Positions 4,455 through 47,452 of a stretch of 47,452 bases of DNA are shown one piece after another. A program made the position numbers and the translations under genes. Source of the DNA: an uncultured Ignavibacteriaceae bacterium (GTDB taxonomy: Bacteria; Bacteroidota; Ignavibacteria; UBA10030); NCBI GenBank assembly GCA_964372545.1, contig CAYJSZ010000002.1, forward strand, positions 1 to 47,452, written 5' to 3'. The first letter of the stretch is position 1. Each line of letters begins with the position of its first letter. The notes below the pieces were generated by a model. That model searched no databases. It saw nothing but the letters and a program-made list of their open reading frames with translations, and was not told the origin of the DNA.

Positions 4455-6125
4455 ATGAGGATAAACATGAAAACTCCACGGAGCTCTCGAAGTAAAGAAA
4501 CGTCACCCAGTCGTAGAAAATTTCTCCGCTCGAGCGTGTTGGGGAGTGTCGCTGTACTGACAACTCTTAAATCGCCGGCTTCAACGGGGAAAGGAGTTGA
4601 ACAGCAACCGGGAGTATTTGAACTCGATGAAGCGACGATAGCCCAACTGCAGGGAATGATGCAGGAAGGAAGAACCTCGGCACGCTCACTCGCTGAGAAA
4701 TATCTTGCGCGCATCGAAGAGATCGACAAGCACGGACCGACGATCAGCTCCATCATCGAGCTCAATCCCGACGCGCTGGCGATTGCCGATGCGCTCGATG
4801 GGGAACGCAAAGCGAAGGGACCGCGAGGACCGCTGCACGGAATTCCCGTGCTGATCAAAGACAACATCGACACGGCGGACAGGATGATGACCACTGCCGG
4901 CTCTTTGGCTCTTGTTGGTGCGAAGCCGGCAAAAGATGCGTTCGTCGTTCAACGGCTGCGGGAAGCCGGCGCAGTCATTCTCGGCAAGACGAACCTCAGC
5001 GAGTGGGCGAACTTCCGGTCGTCTCACTCGACGAGCGGCTGGAGCGGACGAGGCGGACAGACAAAGAATCCGTATTCGTTAGACAGAAATCCCTGCGGGT
5101 CCAGTTCAGGTTCTGGGGTTGCCGTTGCTGCCAATCTCTGCGCAGTCGCTGTTGGCACAGAAACCGACGGCTCCATCATCTGCCCGTCTTCGTCGAACGG
5201 CATCGTGGGCATCAAACCAACACTTGGACTCGTGAGCCGGACGGGAATCATCCCGATCGCGCATAGTCAGGACACGGCCGGACCGATGGCTCGCACCGTT
5301 GCCGATGCTGCGGCTTTGCTCGGCGCGATGGTCGGCATCGACAATGAAGACGGCGCCACCATCGGGAGCAGGGGAAAATCCTCCACAGACTACACGAAGT
5401 TCCTGGACCCAAACGGCTTGAAAGGCGCTCGCATTGGGGTGGCACGGAAATTCTTCGGCTTCAGTGACAAAGTCGACAAGCTCATGAACGACGCCATCGA
5501 CGTTATGAAACGGCTTGGCGCGACGATCGTTGATCCTGCCGACTTGCCAACGCACGGGAAGTTTGACGACTCGGAGTTCGAGGTGCTGCTATTCGAGTTC
5601 AAAGCCGACATCAACAAGTACCTTGCACAGTTGGGCTCAAGCTTCCCGCTGAAGACGCTGAAAGACCTGATCGACTTCAACGAAAAGAACCGCGACAGGG
5701 AGATGCCGTACTTCGGGCAGGAGCTCTTCATCAAAGCGCAGGAGAAGGGTCGGCTCACCAGCCCGGCATACCGCAAAGCGCTCAAAAAAAATCCCCGCAT
5801 GAGCCGTAAAGAAGGCATCGACGCGGTCATGAACAAGCACAAGCTCCACGCGCTGATCGCGCCTTCCGGAAGTCCCGCGTGGACGACAGACCTTGTGAAC
5901 GGCGATCATTTCACCGGCGGCAGCTCGAGCCCGGCAGCGGTGGCGGGTTATCCCAACATCAACGTGCCGGCGGGGTTCGTGTTCGGTCTTCCGGTCGGCA
6001 TTTCATTTTTCGGTCGAGCCTTCAGCGAGCCGACGCTCGTCAAGCTCGCATACGCGTACGAGCAAGCGACAAAGTTCCGCCGCCCGCCGCAGTTCCTACC
6101 AGAAGCAAACCTTAGGTCTTCATGA
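4455..6125 (+). CDS. Amidase-signature family amidase with a Tat-type signal peptide
   Basis: Amidase signature GGSSSGSGVAVAANLCAVAVGTETDGSIICPSS and KDNIDT are present. A twin-arginine-like SRRKFLRSS follows ATG 4455 (ATG 4467 is also possible). The tracked ORF start at 4347 adds an implausible leader. Confidence 0.85.
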   Translation: MRINMKTPRSSRSKETSPSRRKFLRSSVLGSVAVLTTLKSPASTGKGVEQQPGVFELDEATIAQLQGMMQEGRTSARSLAEKYLARIEEIDKHGPTISSIIELNPDALAIADALDGERKAKGPRGPLHGIPVLIKDNIDTADRMMTTAGSLALVGAKPAKDAFVVQRLREAGAVILGKTNLSEWANFRSSHSTSGWSGRGGQTKNPYSLDRNPCGSSSGSGVAVAANLCAVAVGTETDGSIICPSSSNGIVGIKPTLGLVSRTGIIPIAHSQDTAGPMARTVADAAALLGAMVGIDNEDGATIGSRGKSSTDYTKFLDPNGLKGARIGVARKFFGFSDKVDKLMNDAIDVMKRLGATIVDPADLPTHGKFDDSEFEVLLFEFKADINKYLAQLGSSFPLKTLKDLIDFNEKNRDREMPYFGQELFIKAQEKGRLTSPAYRKALKKNPRMSRKEGIDAVMNKHKLHALIAPSGSPAWTTDLVNGDHFTGGSSSPAAVAGYPNINVPAGFVFGLPVGISFFGRAFSEPTLVKLAYAYEQATKFRRPPQFLPEANLRSS

Positions 6126-6256: not shown

Positions 6257-7372
6257 ATGAACGGCGGGACGCAGAAAACGCGCAAGGGGGACGCGCGCTT
6301 TTCGCGCAGGGGGTCATTTTACTTTCTTCTTTGCGCACTTTTCTTTCTCTATAGTAACATTTTCGCTCAAGACGAGGTCGTGGACTTGAAGAGCGGCAAG
6401 GCGATGTACGAAGCCTGGTGCGCGAAGTGCCACGGCGAAGACGGCCGCGGCTTGGTGGAAGGCCTGGAGCTTGAAGTACCCGTCCCCGATTTCACCGATT
6501 GCGGCTTCAACTCCCGCGAGCCGCGCAAAGATTGGAAAGCCGTCGTTGCGCACGGCGGACCGGCACGGGGACTTTCCTGGAGCATGCCCGCCTGGAGCGA
6601 AGCGATCTCCGACGAGCAGATCGACCTGATCATCGACTACACCAAAACATTCTGCACCGATGCGCGCTGGCCGAAGGGTGAGCTGAACTTTCGCCGCGCG
6701 CAGGTTACGGCGAAAGCGTTTCCCGAAAACGAGGCGCTGCTCATCCCCATCTACACTCACAGCCGGCATCGCAGCTCGACCACGAAGCTCGTCTACGAAG
6801 AACGCATCGGGCCGCGCGGGCAGTGGGAGATCTCCGTGCCGATCGTTTCCCGCTACCAGAGCGCAGCGACGGGAATCGGGGACGTTGAGCTGTCCGGCAA
6901 GCTCGCACTGTTCGACAACCTCGAATCGCTGTCGATTGTCAGTGCAGGCCTGGAGGTCGGCCTCCCGACCGGCGACGAGAGCAACGGGTTCGGTTCGGGG
7001 CGATGGAAGCTCGCACCATACCTCGCGGCAGGCAAAGGGGTTGAAGATTTTTTTCTCCAAACGAGTATCAAATACGAGCAGCCGTTGAAGGGTGAAGATC
7101 GCGAGCTGCAATACAATTTCGCGCTGACCTATCCGCTCACGGAAGACAAGCAGGGACTCATCCCGATGTTGGAGGTGAACGGCATCAAGTCGTTCGAGAC
7201 TGGAGCCAACTCTCTCTTCTTGACGCCCCAGATGTACATCGGACTCGTCAAACGGGGCCACATCGCGCTTTCCGTCGGCACGCAGATTCCGATCGCCGGC
7301 GAGAGGCCGTTCGACTATCGCGTTGTTGCGTTTTTCTTATGGGAATATGCCGACGGCGGTCTTTGGTGGTGA
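6257..7372 (+). CDS. Mono-haem c-type cytochrome domain fused to a C-terminal beta-barrel (MetA/phenol-degradation-like transporter) domain
   Basis: From ATG 6257 there is a Sec signal (RRGSFYFLLCALFFLYSNIFAQ). A single CxxCH (WCAKCHGEDG) is followed by a distal SMPAW Met-ligand-like motif. About 260 aa of alternating beta-strand-like sequence follow, ending in GGLWW. The start is uncertain: ATG 6224 is in frame, and 6122-6256 is occupied by hairpin repeats. Confidence 0.6.
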   Translation: MNGGTQKTRKGDARFSRRGSFYFLLCALFFLYSNIFAQDEVVDLKSGKAMYEAWCAKCHGEDGRGLVEGLELEVPVPDFTDCGFNSREPRKDWKAVVAHGGPARGLSWSMPAWSEAISDEQIDLIIDYTKTFCTDARWPKGELNFRRAQVTAKAFPENEALLIPIYTHSRHRSSTTKLVYEERIGPRGQWEISVPIVSRYQSAATGIGDVELSGKLALFDNLESLSIVSAGLEVGLPTGDESNGFGSGRWKLAPYLAAGKGVEDFFLQTSIKYEQPLKGEDRELQYNFALTYPLTEDKQGLIPMLEVNGIKSFETGANSLFLTPQMYIGLVKRGHIALSVGTQIPIAGERPFDYRVVAFFLWEYADGGLWW

Positions 7373-7609
7373 GGAAAGTGGAATGATGGAGTGATGGAGT
7401 AATGGAGAGGTGATGGGTGCGTAGGAATACGGATGACAAATTAACTCCCGCCAAGAAACGGCGGGATGTCCCGCCTTCTGGGATTCCGCTCAAAGGCAGT
7501 GCCGTCACGCCTCTCGGCGTGACGAGCATTCTCGTCTCGAACGAAGTTCGGGACGGAAGATTCTGAGAAGCGGAACATAAAGCGCACAATTAGCCAGGTG
7601 GGATTTCTC

Positions 7610-8176
7610 ATGAAGATCGGAAAGACTCTATACGCGAAGAATCGACACCAATGGCGAGCGTGGCTGAAGAAGAACCACTCGACGGCAAAAGAGATCTGGT
7701 TGATCTACTACAACAAGCAGTCCGGCAAGCCGCGCATTCCGTACAACGACGCCGTTGAAGAAGCGCTCTGTTTCGGGTGGATCGACAGTATTGTCAAAAA
7801 ATATGATAAAGACCGGGCGGCTCAGCGGTTTTCTCCCCGCAAGCCGAAGAGTACGTGGTCGGAGATGAACAAAGAACGCGTGCGGCGACTCATCAAGCAA
7901 GGCAGAATGACGAAGGCGGGATTGGCAGTGTTCGACAAGAAGCAGGGACTACAAGTGATCAAAGAAAACAGGCTCGTCATTCCGAAAGATATTCTACAGG
8001 GACTCAAGAAGAACAAGACCGTTTGGAGAAACTTTCAGAACTTTCGGGAGTCGTACAAACGAATCCGCATCGGGTGGATCGACGCCTCACGCAATCGACC
8101 CGATTTCTTCCGACGACGGCTGCGCTACTTTCTGAAGATGACGGCGCAGAACAAGCGATTCGGGATGGTGCAATAG
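7610..8176 (+). CDS. YdeI/OmpD-associated family protein
   Basis: It matches the family pattern WRAWLKKNHSTAKEIWLIYYNK...PYNDAVEEALCFGWIDS...RFSPRKPKSTWSEMNKERV. ATG 7610 is preferred over the upstream GTG at 7598. Confidence 0.75.
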   Translation: MKIGKTLYAKNRHQWRAWLKKNHSTAKEIWLIYYNKQSGKPRIPYNDAVEEALCFGWIDSIVKKYDKDRAAQRFSPRKPKSTWSEMNKERVRRLIKQGRMTKAGLAVFDKKQGLQVIKENRLVIPKDILQGLKKNKTVWRNFQNFRESYKRIRIGWIDASRNRPDFFRRRLRYFLKMTAQNKRFGMVQ

Positions 8177-8191
8177 ACATGAGCAACAACG

Positions 8192-9028
8192 ATGACCGTT
8201 GAATCACTCAGGACTCTCTGGTACACCTTCAAGCATTTCCGATCGCCTCTTCGCACAATCCTTCGTTTCTACACGCAAACGGAATTTGTGATTCAGACCA
8301 GGCGAGGCAAGGCAGTACATTTCTCGAAGAAAAAAATTTCCTTCGGTTTTTTGCTGCGCGTCTTGAACAACGGATGGACGGTGGTGGATCATCGCGACGA
8401 CCACTTCCTGTTTCATCGGGACGGGATCTCGCTCTTCCAGCCCAACGTGGGCGTCCTCATGGAGGACTTTGACGAACAATATGGAACGTTTGATTACCAC
8501 GGAGCTGTCGTAATCGACGTGGGAGGATACGTTGGCGAGACGGCAGTATTCTTCCAAAAATGGGGCGCAAAGACAGTCGTTGTGTTCGAGCCGGTGAAGG
8601 AGCATGTCGCCCTCCTGCGGAAAAATCTCAAACTGAACGCAGTGAAGGCGCAGGTCGTTCAGGCGGCGGTCTCCAACAAGAGTGGCAGGCTCTGCATCGG
8701 TGCACGACGACATATTCTCGACGCCGGTTTTGGACTGGTCGACCGCGGAGAGCTCACCGTCGAATCATGGTCCTGGAACAAGCTCCTCTCCTTCGCAAGG
8801 AAGAAGAATGCCTCCATCATCAAGGTTGATTGCGAAGGGTACGAACGATTTCTTGTTGAAGTGAATAAAAAGGCAATCGCTTACATTCCCCGTTGGTTGA
8901 TCGAAGCCCATTCACCGGCGATACGCGATTCTCTTGTTTCGTTTTTTGGGCAGGCCGGCTTTCGGCTCGTAAAGACCCTGACGGTCGAAAAGGATATCTT
9001 CCTCCTGACTTTTCTCCGGCCATCGTAG
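8192..9028 (+). CDS. FkbM-family methyltransferase
   Basis: SAM-binding segment VIDVGGYVGETAVFFQKWGAKTVVVFEP is present, followed by NKSGRL...IIKVDCEGYE, the typical FkbM layout. Confidence 0.7.
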   Translation: MTVESLRTLWYTFKHFRSPLRTILRFYTQTEFVIQTRRGKAVHFSKKKISFGFLLRVLNNGWTVVDHRDDHFLFHRDGISLFQPNVGVLMEDFDEQYGTFDYHGAVVIDVGGYVGETAVFFQKWGAKTVVVFEPVKEHVALLRKNLKLNAVKAQVVQAAVSNKSGRLCIGARRHILDAGFGLVDRGELTVESWSWNKLLSFARKKNASIIKVDCEGYERFLVEVNKKAIAYIPRWLIEAHSPAIRDSLVSFFGQAGFRLVKTLTVEKDIFLLTFLRPS

Positions 9029-45597: not shown

Positions 45598-46995
45598 TTA
45601 TCCGTTCGAGAGGGGAAGGAATTGAAGTGTTGCGACCGAAACGGTCTCCTGAGTAAGCTGAAAGCGCTCGTCGAGTCGTTGGCCACACACCCAGACGATG
45701 GCGCCGTCGGATTCAAGCACGGGAATACGATGTTTTTCGTGCAGCGGGATCTTCTTGTCGACGAAAAAATCGCTCAGTTTTTTCTTTCCGTGTAATCCCA
45801 ACGGGATGAACCAATCCCCGTCCCGCCAGTTTCGAAGAACGAGCTCCTTGCCCAACCGCCCGGCATCGACGAACGCGGTCATCGCGCCGCGTTGAAACGT
45901 GCGCGGCGTGTCGTGTTCGACGACGGAAGAAAACTCAAATCCGGGAAATCGATAGGCCTCCCCGAGTTGCACAGGATACTCGAACGGTTGAACAGCTGTG
46001 GAGCTATCGAAGACCAATCGATCGCGGTCTCGGAAAACTCGAACAGACCGTGAAAGCGATAGTGACCGCCCGGTTTGTTTGGAACAAAGCTCCAACACGT
46101 GGATCACTTTTTCAGCAAGGGGTTCAACGTCGAGTCTTCGGAAGAGCGAGAGAATGATTTCGTCCTGAAGAAGGGGAGATTGTTTTAGAAGAAGCGGGAT
46201 GTCCACGAATGTTTTCTTGTTATCTCGAGAAACAATCTGTCGAAGCACGGATTCCGTTTCAGCGGTGAGTCTTCCTTCGAGATCGCGCATCGACGCGGCA
46301 ATCCGATTGAACGACTGTGAGACATCGATTTCCAGGCTCGTGCGCAGAAAAGGCATAACCTTATGGCGAATGAGGTTCCGCGTGTACTCCAGAGAATCGT
46401 TTGATGAATCCTGCCGGAACGCGATCCGGCGCTCCCGTGCGTAGTGCTCAATTTCCTTCCGATACGCAAAGAGCAGCGGGCGGATAATAGATCCATTCTC
46501 TCGCTTCGAGGGAATCCCCGCGAGCCCATGAATACCGCTGCCGCGCAGCGCATTCATCAGGACTGTTTCCGCGTTATCGTCCGCATTGTGAGCAGTTGCA
46601 ACCAGATCTGCGCCAAGAGCCTTCCGCGTTTCTTCAAAGAATCGGTAGCGCAACTCGCGAGCTGCTTCCTGTTTTCCTACGCCGTGCTGATGAGCGTAGT
46701 CCAGCGTCTCGACACGAGCAGAATAGGAGGGAAGACCCAGGCGTTCCGCTGCCTCCCGAACAAACTCTTCGTCGCCACTTGCCTCATCGCCGCGTAATTG
46801 ATGGTTGACGTGAGCGACGCTGAGTGTGAGCTTCCATGGTTCTTTCAGTTCCAGGAAGAGATACATCATGGCCATGGAGTCGATTCCCCCGCTTACGGCG
46901 AGCAGAACATGCAAACCCGGTGTAAGCAGCTGGTGTGACGTGAGAAACTCCTCGAACCGAGAGAGAAAATGTTCAGGATGGGTCATCATTGGCAT
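45598..46995 (-). CDS. tilS: tRNA(Ile)-lysidine synthase
   Basis: PP-loop LLAVSGGIDSMAM is present. The gene encodes 465 aa and keeps the conserved tilS-hpt-ftsH gene order. Confidence 0.9.
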   Translation of the reverse strand: MPMMTHPEHFLSRFEEFLTSHQLLTPGLHVLLAVSGGIDSMAMMYLFLELKEPWKLTLSVAHVNHQLRGDEASGDEEFVREAAERLGLPSYSARVETLDYAHQHGVGKQEAARELRYRFFEETRKALGADLVATAHNADDNAETVLMNALRGSGIHGLAGIPSKRENGSIIRPLLFAYRKEIEHYARERRIAFRQDSSNDSLEYTRNLIRHKVMPFLRTSLEIDVSQSFNRIAASMRDLEGRLTAETESVLRQIVSRDNKKTFVDIPLLLKQSPLLQDEIILSLFRRLDVEPLAEKVIHVLELCSKQTGRSLSLSRSVRVFRDRDRLVFDSSTAVQPFEYPVQLGEAYRFPGFEFSSVVEHDTPRTFQRGAMTAFVDAGRLGKELVLRNWRDGDWFIPLGLHGKKKLSDFFVDKKIPLHEKHRIPVLESDGAIVWVCGQRLDERFQLTQETVSVATLQFLPLSNG

Positions 46996-47003
46996 CGTTC
47001 ATA

Positions 47004-47051
47004 CAAAAAATCTTGATCCGGCGATACCACGGCGCGATCAAGAGTTTTTTT
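47004..47051. terminator. Bidirectional terminator-like hairpin between the tRNA locus and tilS
   Basis: Stem tcttgatc...gatcaaga (47011-47043) is flanked by an A-run (47004-47010) and a T-run (47045-47051). A U-tract therefore follows the hairpin on either strand. Confidence 0.5.
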
Positions 47052-47076
47052 GAATTTTAGGATTTCAACACGTTGC

Positions 47077-47221
47077 GATCCCGACAAAAGTCGACAGGGA
47101 TTCTGAAAATGGCAGTCACTCATTGAAAACGTTCGTGGGCCACAACTTTCGATCCCGCCACGAAGCGGCGGGGTTCTCAAAATCACTGCCACTCGCACAA
47201 TGCGCTCGCGGGTGATTTTGG
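47077..47221. repeat. Two tandem ~72-nt double-hairpin modules immediately 3' of the tRNA gene
   Basis: Module 1 (47077-47150) is gatcccgacaaaagtcgacaggga + ttctgaaaatgg... Module 2 (47151-47221) is gatcccgccacgaagcggcgggg + ttctcaaaatcac...gtgattttgg. A third copy with the same architecture lies at 47328-47397. Confidence 0.65.
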
Positions 47222-47224
47222 AAG

Positions 47225-47298
47225 TAGCGGGGGAGGGATTCGAACCCACGACCTGCGGATTATGATTCCGACGCTCTAACCAACTGAGCTACCCCGCC
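47225..47298 (-). tRNA. tRNA with anticodon CAU (Met or Ile2/lysidine type; isotype not resolvable by eye)
   Basis: The minus-strand sequence GGCGGGGTAGCTCAGTTGGTTAGAGCGTCGGAATCATAATCCGCAGGTCGTGGGTTCGAATCCCTCCCCCGCTA folds as a 74-nt cloverleaf. The D stem is GCTC/GAGC, the anticodon loop is AUCAUAA and the T-loop is TTCGAAT. No CCA is encoded. Three weak or mismatched pairs are present: G1-U72, U27-C43 and U50-U64. Confidence 0.75.
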
Positions 47299-47452
47299 AA
47301 CAAATCGAGACTGACGACGCTCTAACCAATCCCGTCGAACTGCGACGGGATCCTCAAAATTGCAGTCCCGCAAAGAAACTGCGGGAGCAATTTTGGGACT
47401 GAGCTACCCCGCCAACAAATCGAGACTGACGACGCTCTAACCAATCCCGTCG
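47283..47452. repeat. Tandem 115-bp repeat (1 full unit plus 55 bp of a second, truncated by the window end) carrying 5' tRNA fragments
   Basis: 47283-47337 is repeated exactly at 47398-47452. Read on the minus strand, each unit is: tRNA nt 1-16 (GGCGGGGTAGCTCAGT), a 68-nt double-hairpin insert, tRNA nt ~17-30 (TTGGTTAGAGCGTCG), then the 16-nt spacer TCAGTCTCGATTTGTT. Confidence 0.8.

Follow-up and report, generated by a model that had tools for sequence, protein, structure and literature searches.

A family of double-hairpin repeats in Ignavibacteriales, with a tandem array of tRNA fragments upstream of tRNA(CAU)

Rolling-circle transposons of the IS91/ISCR and Helitron types have one defined active end, leave no target-site duplication (TSD) and carry over 3' flanking sequence after a missed terminator; they terminate at target-like sequences and form head-to-tail arrays. 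The RAYT transposase genes linked to REP repeats are normally single-copy and REP-flanked. IS200/IS605 elements and their derivatives without an open reading frame (ORF; the PATEs) have hairpin ends instead of inverted repeats. The criteria for REP elements are a palindrome of 20-40 nt, a GTAG or CGTC tag and a RAYT gene flanked by repeats on both sides (PMC3733652). Here, the end of a 47,452-nt stretch of DNA from an uncultured Ignavibacteriaceae bacterium was analysed (contig CAYJSZ010000002.1, assembly GCA_964372545.1; the whole stretch is called the window below), where tandem units carrying a 69-nt double-hairpin insert precede a tRNA(CAU) gene. Judged by its predicted fold and its match to a covariance model, this insert is one copy of an Ignavibacteriales-specific family of 65-90-nt double-hairpin repeats, apparently undescribed, and the locus is a typical member of that family, not a singular oddity.

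The tRNA(CAU) array and its module family

An intact minus-strand tRNA(CAU) gene with tandem 115-bp units upstream had been claimed in an earlier note on this DNA, and ARAGORN, Rfam and a repeat search of the window agree on the arrangement (coordinates in Table 1). The unit is composed of a 16-nt spacer, tRNA nt 1-15, the 69-nt double hairpin (module M1) and tRNA nt 16-30. Read in tRNA sense, outward from the tRNA, the order is: spacer, nt 16-30, insert, nt 1-15, spacer, nt 16-30, next insert. Positions 47283-47337 and 47398-47452 lie 115 bp apart and are identical (55/55), as had been noted; the period is thus exact across all 55 comparable nt, and CGACGCTCTAACCAA is found three times in the window (at 47269, 47315 and 47430). 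The visible array amounts to 1.48 units, and its final 23 nt show a second unit starting before the window end, which gives at least two units. The fragments end at nt 30 and ARAGORN calls one tRNA, in keeping with the claim that the fragments are not tRNAs.

A 68-nt double-hairpin insert between nt 16 and 17 had also been described. The double hairpin and its place in the D-loop stand; the family consensus sets the length at 69 nt and the junction at nt 15/16, and a one-base T ambiguity allows either 15/16 or 16/17. In minus sense, M1 consists of a long hairpin A (TCCCAAAAT...ATTTTGAGGA) followed by hairpin B (TCCCGTCG-CAGTT-CGACGGGA), with a minimum free energy of -40.1 kcal/mol. Two further modules, overlooked in the note, are situated on the other side of the tRNA, both between it and tilS: M2 is a full copy whose hairpin A has the tandem G.A motif, and M3 is a degenerate copy with a weak fold (-15.5 kcal/mol).

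For the family search, a strict sequence pattern was built from M1 and M2, and one genome per bacterial or archaeal species was scanned. The pattern matched 79 loci (cited by L numbers) in about 51 metagenome-assembled genomes (MAGs), nearly all labelled Ignavibacteriales, Ignavibacteriota or 'Bacteroidota', where by our own estimate about two chance matches are expected. One of the matches, from a Pseudomonadales MAG, shows no hairpins and is taken as a chance match. The strict pattern had 0 matches in viral contigs (IMG/VR). A covariance model (R1) was built on an alignment of 82 copies and, run over the loci collected, gave more than 100 confident copies, many of them clustered. Several loci per genome are common and many are near contig ends; copies less than 150 nt from an end were seen in L025, L046, L060, L064, L065, L023 and L047. 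Such positions in many MAGs indicate that these elements regularly break short-read assemblies. When the window locus was scanned with Rfam 15 at E up to 10, the tRNA alone passed, the remaining hits (E > 0.01) being antisense-tRNA artefacts or noise. The layout had been called undescribed, and a search of the literature on Ignavibacteria repeats, tRNA-associated miniature inverted-repeat transposable elements (MITEs), double-hairpin elements and REPIN/tRNA likewise found no description of the module.

The 82 copies were aligned in the orientation of the tRNA-sense strand of the window (S). In S the consensus is TYCCAAAAT-(stem-loop)-ATTTTGAGRA, followed at once by TCCCGnn-(loop)-nnCGGGA (also written TnCCAAAAT...ATTTTGAGAATCCCG...CGGGA). 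In the family fold 96.7% of the cells are paired, versus 82.6% in shuffles, and the covariation score is 0.382, versus 0.117 in shuffles (0/500 reach 0.382) and 0.02-0.06 in slid controls. Clean pair switches were seen in the alignment (UA 40 / CG 38; GC 37 / AU 26 / UA 11 / CG 8); part of the invariance of the module is forced by the search pattern, but the covarying columns are not. For 66 of 82 copies the S strand has the better fold of the two strands (p = 4e-9), and hairpin A usually carries conserved tandem G.A pairs, where the complement would have pyrimidine mismatches. A k-turn was considered and dropped, the bulge not being next to the G.A pairs, and by eye no link was seen between the module start (TCC or TTC) and the last target bases. 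A 22-nt miniature, TTCC-nnn-GGAA-TCCC-nnn-GGGA, which corresponds to the 'feet' of both hairpins only, was observed in L004 (1306-1327, 1457-1478 and 1511-1532), in the T-loop of tRNA-Val 3' fragments and nested inside other modules; miniature double hairpins of this kind are also present at L081:2833-2855 and L069:3134-3161.

An intact tRNA gene lies within 150 nt of a module in 29 of 78 loci. In 21 others the module stands 15-25 nt upstream of a Ser/Thr-kinase gene starting MIGQTISHYK..., and among the remaining 28, many show pieces of tRNA bordering the module. The density of tRNA genes in the family loci is about 8 times that of a typical genome. Wherever a locus also offers an intact gene against which to align the interrupted copy, module insertion was precise and target duplication absent. 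Insertions were found in the D-loop (window, L062, L038, L054, L076), in the anticodon loop (L004, L016, L049, L021, L046, L065, L039) and at other points (5/6, 10-11, 29-39, 41-44, 52-53 and tRNA ends). The anticodon-loop junctions read TTA|module|CAA in L049 and L004 and CTTC|module|CCAA in L021, and full-length tRNA copies interrupted by a module are present in L049 and L046. If the tRNA gene strand is folded as a cloverleaf, the landing points are often in or next to its predicted loops, mostly the D-loop and the anticodon loop. Since the D-loop is just one among several landing points, kinase gene starts included, the suggestion that the module targets the D-loop region is too narrow. Of 32 tRNA-adjacent copies, 19 are sense and 13 antisense to the tRNA. 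In the rplL-rpoB spacer, a module starts one base past the rplL stop in two species-level MAGs (L040:1619-1689 and L063:397-467, 98.6% identical to each other); in E. coli, an attenuator and an RNase III site are located in this spacer.

The layout around the modules is polar. For 38 of 78 copies, read in S orientation, the sequence on the 5' side of the module turns up again on its 3' side, where it leads into the intact gene; 5 of 78 show the mirror arrangement, exclusively inside tandem arrays, where it results from array periodicity. The general layout is: target 1..n, module, 0-15 nt of continued target, a 10-25-nt spacer and the intact target. In the window n = 15, the continuation reaches nt 30 and the whole is repeated at least twice. 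All five D-loop cases have a continuation of 5-15 nt after the module, the longest being that of the window (nt 16-30). Where the module is co-oriented with the tRNA, the orphan piece is a 5' fragment upstream; an antisense module goes with a 3' fragment downstream instead (L041, L061, L069, L029, L044, L047, L049). The duplicated segment usually starts 0-4 nt from the gene boundary (the mature tRNA end), although in L077 it takes in 50 nt of leader. The direct repeats around the modules vary in length (8-60 nt; n = 5 to 53). An intact gene beside a fragment regularly accompanies the module, in tRNA genes and at kinase starts alike, and the claim of a later, separate amplification was therefore not sustained (38/78 versus 5/78 for the mirror). 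What stood of the proposal of a structured mobile module is a structured, repeated, apparently mobile family that forms arrays elsewhere too; the alternative of a transcribed leader or small-RNA array may still apply. L036 has three units (tRNA nt 1-10, module and 24 nt) followed by an intact tRNA(CAU), L004 a complex array of tRNA-Val 3' fragments; further tandem arrays were found in L019 and L016, and pure stacks of modules in L035 and L072.

With tilS as anchor for the comparison of orthologous loci, the order tRNA(CAU)-tilS-hpt-ftsH is common to the window, L062 and L081-L084. In L083 (TilS about 60% identical) the tRNA is plain, with neither module nor fragment, and in L081/L082 (TilS 64%) one degenerate module directly follows the tRNA, at the position of M2. 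L062 (TilS 49% identical) has a native promoter and hairpin leader as in L081; next come tRNA nt 1-11, the first module, a 20-nt stretch, tRNA nt 1-16, another module (in the D-loop site), nt 17-25, 11 nt and the intact tRNA. From the empty L083, the single module of L081/L082 and the native leader of L062, the array is best seen as a derived state in which the leftmost fragment (visible in L062) occupies the gene's apparent original position. The closer relatives have no D-loop module, so the D-loop site was probably used independently in two distant lineages.

The other features of the locus are as follows. CCA is not encoded by the window tRNA(CAU), which by its anticodon is an elongator Met or an Ile2 tRNA; the Met label given by ARAGORN is based on the anticodon only, and next to tilS the gene could encode either the TilS substrate tRNA-Ile2 or the elongator tRNA-Met. 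The spacer at 47299-47314 starts with TCAGT and resembles the sequence that follows the module ends in L062 and L019. A simple promoter/terminator scan of 46800-47452 called nothing. That scan missed a 14-nt inverted repeat (47005-47049; 93% complementary, 17-nt loop) bordered by runs of A and T and lying 10-55 nt before the start of tilS; it is kept (at about 115-165) in L001, an 86%-identical relative whose sequence reaches 175 nt upstream of tilS, and may be a terminator or an operator. Weak plus-strand Rfam hits at 47225-47297 (Plastid-ycf2, E 0.011; Plastid-psbl-rps4) are antisense of the tRNA, not separate features.

Table 1. Coordinates of the window features and of kinase and RAYT-like genes in other loci
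Feature	Location	Strand	Basis or remark
Intact tRNA, anticodon CAU	47224-47298	minus	ARAGORN (anticodon CAT); Rfam RF00005, 67.2 bits at 47225-47298
16-nt spacer, TCAGTCTCGATTTGTT (minus sense)	47299-47314	minus	abuts the intact tRNA on its upstream side
Copy of tRNA nt 16-30, TTGGTTAGAGCGTCG, 3' piece of the unit 1 pseudo-fragment	47315-47329	minus	identity to tRNA
Module M1, 69-nt double hairpin	47330-47398	minus	covariance model R1, 71.3 bits, E 2.4e-12
Copy of tRNA nt 1-15, GGCGGGGTAGCTCAG, 5' piece of the unit 1 pseudo-fragment	47399-47413	minus	identity to tRNA
Second copy of the 16-nt spacer	47414-47429	minus	identical to 47299-47314
Start of unit 2: copy of tRNA nt 16-30 and 8 nt of the next module	47430-47444 and 47445-47452	minus	identical to 47315-47337; the 8 nt, cut by the window end, are the same as 47330-47337 of M1 (script check)
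Module M2, full family copy directly 3' of the tRNA	47151-47223	minus	R1, 76.7 bits, E 1.7e-13
Module M3, degenerate copy beside M2	47077-47145	minus	R1, 27.8 bits, E 0.0036
tilS (tRNA-Ile lysidine synthetase), downstream neighbour	45598-46995	minus	homologues with PF01171 and PF11734, named TilS
Kinase units with read-through upstream ORF	L011:5289-5436, L070:4009-4154, L042, L056, L067, L028, L017, L079, others
RAYT-like genes	L165:1583-2134, 5147-5812; L166:4150-4668, 8001-8684; L167:3479-4003, 7180-7755

Comparison with described elements

The family was compared with known systems feature by feature. With REPs and REPINs it shares short, structured, multi-copy chromosomal repeats that would act as folded single strands, are largely vertically inherited, occur in clusters and arrays and lack a classical pair of terminal inverted repeats and TSD; RAYT-like Y1 genes also share genomes with the modules and are twice right beside one. 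The differences are several: the module measures 65-90 nt and has two distinct hairpins, not one palindrome of 20-40 nt; its consensus has no GTAG or CGTC tag; no RAYT-like gene is flanked by modules on both sides (in L011, L050, L165-L167 or 80 metagenome loci); and modules are placed upstream of genes and inside gene fragments, whereas REPs are at 3' ends of ORFs. We know of no polar target duplication as a REP feature.

The hairpin ends of IS200/IS605 elements and PATEs, their insertion without target duplication and their strand-specific active strand are paralleled in the module, and targets of their single-stranded DNA type would explain the preference for tRNA gene loops. However, the module has no fixed tetra- or pentanucleotide 5' of its left end, it faces either way relative to tRNA genes (19 sense, 13 antisense), no full-length parent insertion sequence with matching ends was found among the 657 ORFs of the 78 loci, and peel-and-paste transposition does not account for the regular partial duplication of the target. 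The behaviour of rolling-circle transposons would fit a unit that joins module, spacer and target 1..n and enters at site n, as a mechanistic analogy only: the family has no Rep/HUH-helicase gene and none of the known end motifs, and its unit is about 100 nt.

Integrative elements that target tRNA genes likewise lie between direct repeats of part of the tRNA and regenerate an intact tRNA. The module repeats the side 5' of itself, whichever tRNA end that is; it is about 100 nt, has variable end points and no integrase, and also targets the starts of protein genes. Small hairpin-forming mobile inserts tolerated inside genes, RNA genes included, are known as Rickettsia palindromic elements, mitochondrial GC clusters, double-hairpin elements and 'byps', and the double-hairpin elements have the two-hairpin look in common with the module. 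All of these are tolerated in place (in frame or bypassed), with no regenerated gene copy, and their hosts and sequences are unrelated to those of the module. A classical MITE has terminal inverted repeats of at least about 10 bp and a TSD of fixed length; the module has a 4-nt TCCC...GGGA symmetry only, and the TSD is absent or replaced by variable repeats of 8-60 nt. A tRNA intron (group I or bulge-helix-bulge) does not fit window fragments that end at nt 30, and no Rfam intron or ribozyme matched at E up to 10. The stems of the module (CAAAAT/ATTTTG and TCCCG/CGGGA) are not the R''/R' boxes (RYYYAAC...GTTRRRY) of integron attC sites, which also have an IntI gene nearby; no profile specific for IntI was run over the loci. 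The element thus fails the defining tests of REP/RAYT systems, IS200/IS605 derivatives, classical MITEs, att scars, attC sites and tRNA introns; by analogy, it would work most like the single-stranded-DNA hairpin elements.

A proposed action as folded single-stranded DNA, and rival explanations

We lean, with modest confidence, towards reading the family as REP/MITE-like non-autonomous elements that act as folded single-stranded DNA and that, on polar insertion, leave behind a fragment of the gene beside an intact copy of it. Single-stranded DNA is suggested by the fold with its strand bias, by precise, duplication-free insertion, by the loop preference and by the use of both orientations, and the polar companion duplication implies a directional, replicative step. 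The active strand would be the folded S strand, and insertion would be a polar replicative single-stranded-DNA event in which the proximal part of the target is re-copied. Two routes can be envisaged: rolling-circle read-through from the module 5' end to the next cognate site, the product being inserted at that same site (comparable to the 3' transduction of IS91 and Helitrons), or attachment of the module to a nascent strand, after which the template is switched backwards. Selection would keep only those events that rebuild an intact essential gene, and this filter would account for duplicated segments that begin at the gene boundary. Arrays would grow through repeated events or through unequal exchange between direct repeats, and the intact tRNA would presumably still be transcribed through the array and freed by RNase P.

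A more specific proposal is put forward tentatively: a target-regenerating micro-element, that is, a folded single-stranded-DNA module of about 70 nt that homes to loop positions in tRNA genes and to the conserved kinase start, and rebuilds the intact gene at each insertion. Equally speculative is its second part, in which the polar replicative step carries or re-copies the proximal target and a dead fragment is left beside the intact gene. Some of the copies may since have been put to use by the host, for instance as translated kinase leaders competent for coupling.

An enzyme was sought among the genes of the loci. When the 657 ORFs of the 78 loci were clustered, kinases were the sole recurrent family; no recurrent integrase, reverse transcriptase or module-ended transposase element was found. 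L011 and L050 encode RAYT-like Y1 transposases (37% identical to each other, with HUH and YY motifs; PF01797 24.8 bits, NF047646 E 2e-15 and 5e-17), and each gene is located 46-49 nt 5' of a co-oriented module. In L165-L167, closer RAYT homologues are present in several copies, interleaved with Ser/Thr-kinase-TPR genes; other kinase genes of the array have a module upstream, and no module adjoins the RAYT-like genes. These genes start about 50 nt after one kinase gene and their stop overlaps the ATG of the next (ATGA), a multi-copy, kinase-interleaved arrangement that is unusual for RAYTs. A PDB sequence search with the RAYT-like protein gave nothing useful. The RAYT-like Y1 (HUH) transposases are the only candidate enzyme seen, and are a lead, not a finding.

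Several observations weigh against a single-stranded-DNA element that moves and regenerates its targets. No transposase is tied to the family among the genes of the 78 loci: the L011 and L050 proteins are under the curated NCBIfam cut-off, their genes have a module on one side only, which may reflect their position in kinase arrays, and 80 metagenome loci of the same RAYT family have no module. The 5' flanks vary (CAG, TAG, AAG, TTG, AGC, AAA, TTC, AAC, TTA and others), with a weak (A/T)AG tendency and no fixed tetranucleotide of the IS200/IS605 type. No intermediate was observed for the first fragment-module-spacer-gene layout, the nt 16-30 piece between module and spacer in the window requires more than one step, and the far end of the array is beyond the window. 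There is also no sign of recent movement: module identity is 0.75 within genomes and 0.70 between genomes, and the most similar pairs of modules (89-99% identity) are from the same genomic context in different species. Across five species that share a kinase unit (n = 52), conservation is highest in the module (0.83), ahead of fragment and gene start (0.71-0.73), kinase coding sequence (0.66), spacer (0.60) and upstream DNA (0.57), although about 25 of 72 module positions (about a third) are fixed by the search pattern in this comparison. Higher conservation of the module than of the kinase coding sequence points to selection. Most copies appear to be old and vertically inherited, and may be under selection. 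Each fragment is closer to its own neighbouring gene (0.77-0.94) than to the fragments of other species (0.73), which fits homogenisation of the direct repeats with each other.

The kinase units bear on the same question. Their module is always co-oriented with the kinase gene, 15-25 nt before its start. An upstream ORF opens at the duplicated ATG in 12 of 22 units, spans the module completely and closes at a TGA that overlaps the real ATG (ATGA); the ORF of L070 was confirmed by hand. Two different reading frames of the module are used, with peptides such as ...VPKWLTSVSQRVIAILRIPP... or ...FQNSPRAFSASGWNFENP... These open upstream ORFs with their ATGA overlap suggest that translational coupling to the kinase is retained and, read from the sequences, that at least some kinase units are shaped by selection. 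In L167 (8590-8650 and 11160-11200), unrelated hairpins (e.g. CCCTCACTCCCCTTCTCCCATAATGGGAGAAGGGGAAGGGGGATGAGGG) follow short duplicated kinase starts (ATGATCG...), and the pattern of a gene-start fragment plus a hairpin may extend beyond this module family.

Of the alternatives, a functional structured RNA or cis element in tRNA leaders and in the 5' untranslated regions of kinase genes survives best, and we consider it unlikely. The module would serve as a processing or stability hairpin, an attenuator or a platform for translational coupling, the fragment-module units would persist because they are useful, and mobility would be ancient or irrelevant. An S-strand bias and conserved tandem G.A pairs are what one expects of functional single strands, and the strong covariation, the 89-99% identity of same-context copies across species, the conservation of the module above flanking coding sequence, the fixed distance and orientation to the kinase start, the coupled upstream ORFs in two module frames and the modules in the rplL-rpoB spacer of two genomes all fit such a role. 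It is at odds with the 13 of 32 tRNA-adjacent copies that are antisense to the tRNA, with copies inside non-functional gene fragments, degenerate copies (M3, L062 module b) and stacks (L035, L072), with the absence of an Rfam match even at E = 10 and with the related locus L083, which does well without a module. An RNA function and a mobile element are compatible if old elements were co-opted; co-option of REP elements has been discussed (PMC3733652).

An RNA-level entry, in which the module would be reverse-spliced or ligated into tRNA loops or halves and then be reverse-transcribed and recombined, is very improbable in our judgement, as is a tRNA intervening sequence of a new type. Landing points do cluster in or next to tRNA loops, duplicated segments start 0-4 nt from the mature tRNA end, and interrupted full-length tRNA copies exist (L049, L046). 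The presence of modules in both orientations relative to tRNAs argues against it: antisense insertions are common, and polarity is set by the S strand, not by the tRNA-sense strand. Leader sequence is duplicated too (L077 and arrays), kinase coding starts are also targeted, the loci hold no recurrent reverse transcriptase, and removal of the module from the window fragment, which has no 3' half, could not give a tRNA.

An assembly artefact, or a neutral local duplication that holds hairpin sequence by chance, is given very little credence. Copy number and junctions were read from the assembly alone, and the terminal repeat (47398-47452) is exactly 55 nt, a common k-mer length of de Bruijn assemblers. 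The same architecture was nevertheless found in independent assemblies (L036, L062, L004, L049, L038 and L076, with k141 MEGAHIT, SPAdes NODE and scaffold names), the insert fits the family model at E 2e-12, and the final 23 nt of the window hold the junction into the second unit.

Just as improbable are att scars of deleted integrase-borne islands or prophages, with the module as the remnant of an element end. Direct repeats of tRNA segments beside foreign sequence do resemble attL/attR, and the antisense-module loci L041, L061 and L069 have 3' tRNA fragments downstream, as classical att sites do; against this, the window repeats the 5' segment (nt 1-30), not a 3' one, its interval is 69-85 nt and ORF-free, repeat lengths and end points vary (n 5 to 53), the 'element' is only about 85-115 nt and tandemly repeated, kinase gene starts show the same module behaviour, and neither a recurrent integrase nor a viral-contig match was obtained, which bears out the earlier note in setting a classical integrase att duplication aside. 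Three further candidates were dropped: a CRISPR-like array (the repeat is too long and the 'spacers' are local gene pieces), template and variable repeats of a diversity-generating retroelement (differences are not adenine-specific and a reverse transcriptase is absent) and a split or permuted tRNA (the host is bacterial and the fragment stops at nt 30).

Meaning for the family and its hosts

Module arrays break assemblies, and the tRNA gene fragments within them are open to misannotation as genes. With the kinase copies, translation through a strong hairpin and termination-reinitiation at the ATGA overlap can be put to the test. What sets the family apart in interest is the regular polar regeneration of the target gene. 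If the layout is a direct product of insertion, it illustrates a way for a very small non-autonomous element to settle in essential, single-copy genes such as tRNAs while the host survives, and the S-strand module (about 70 nt) would be a defined substrate for enzyme hunting. If the target-regenerating micro-element is real, it would be a miniature, integrase-free counterpart of the islands that integrate into tRNA genes, able to form arrays.

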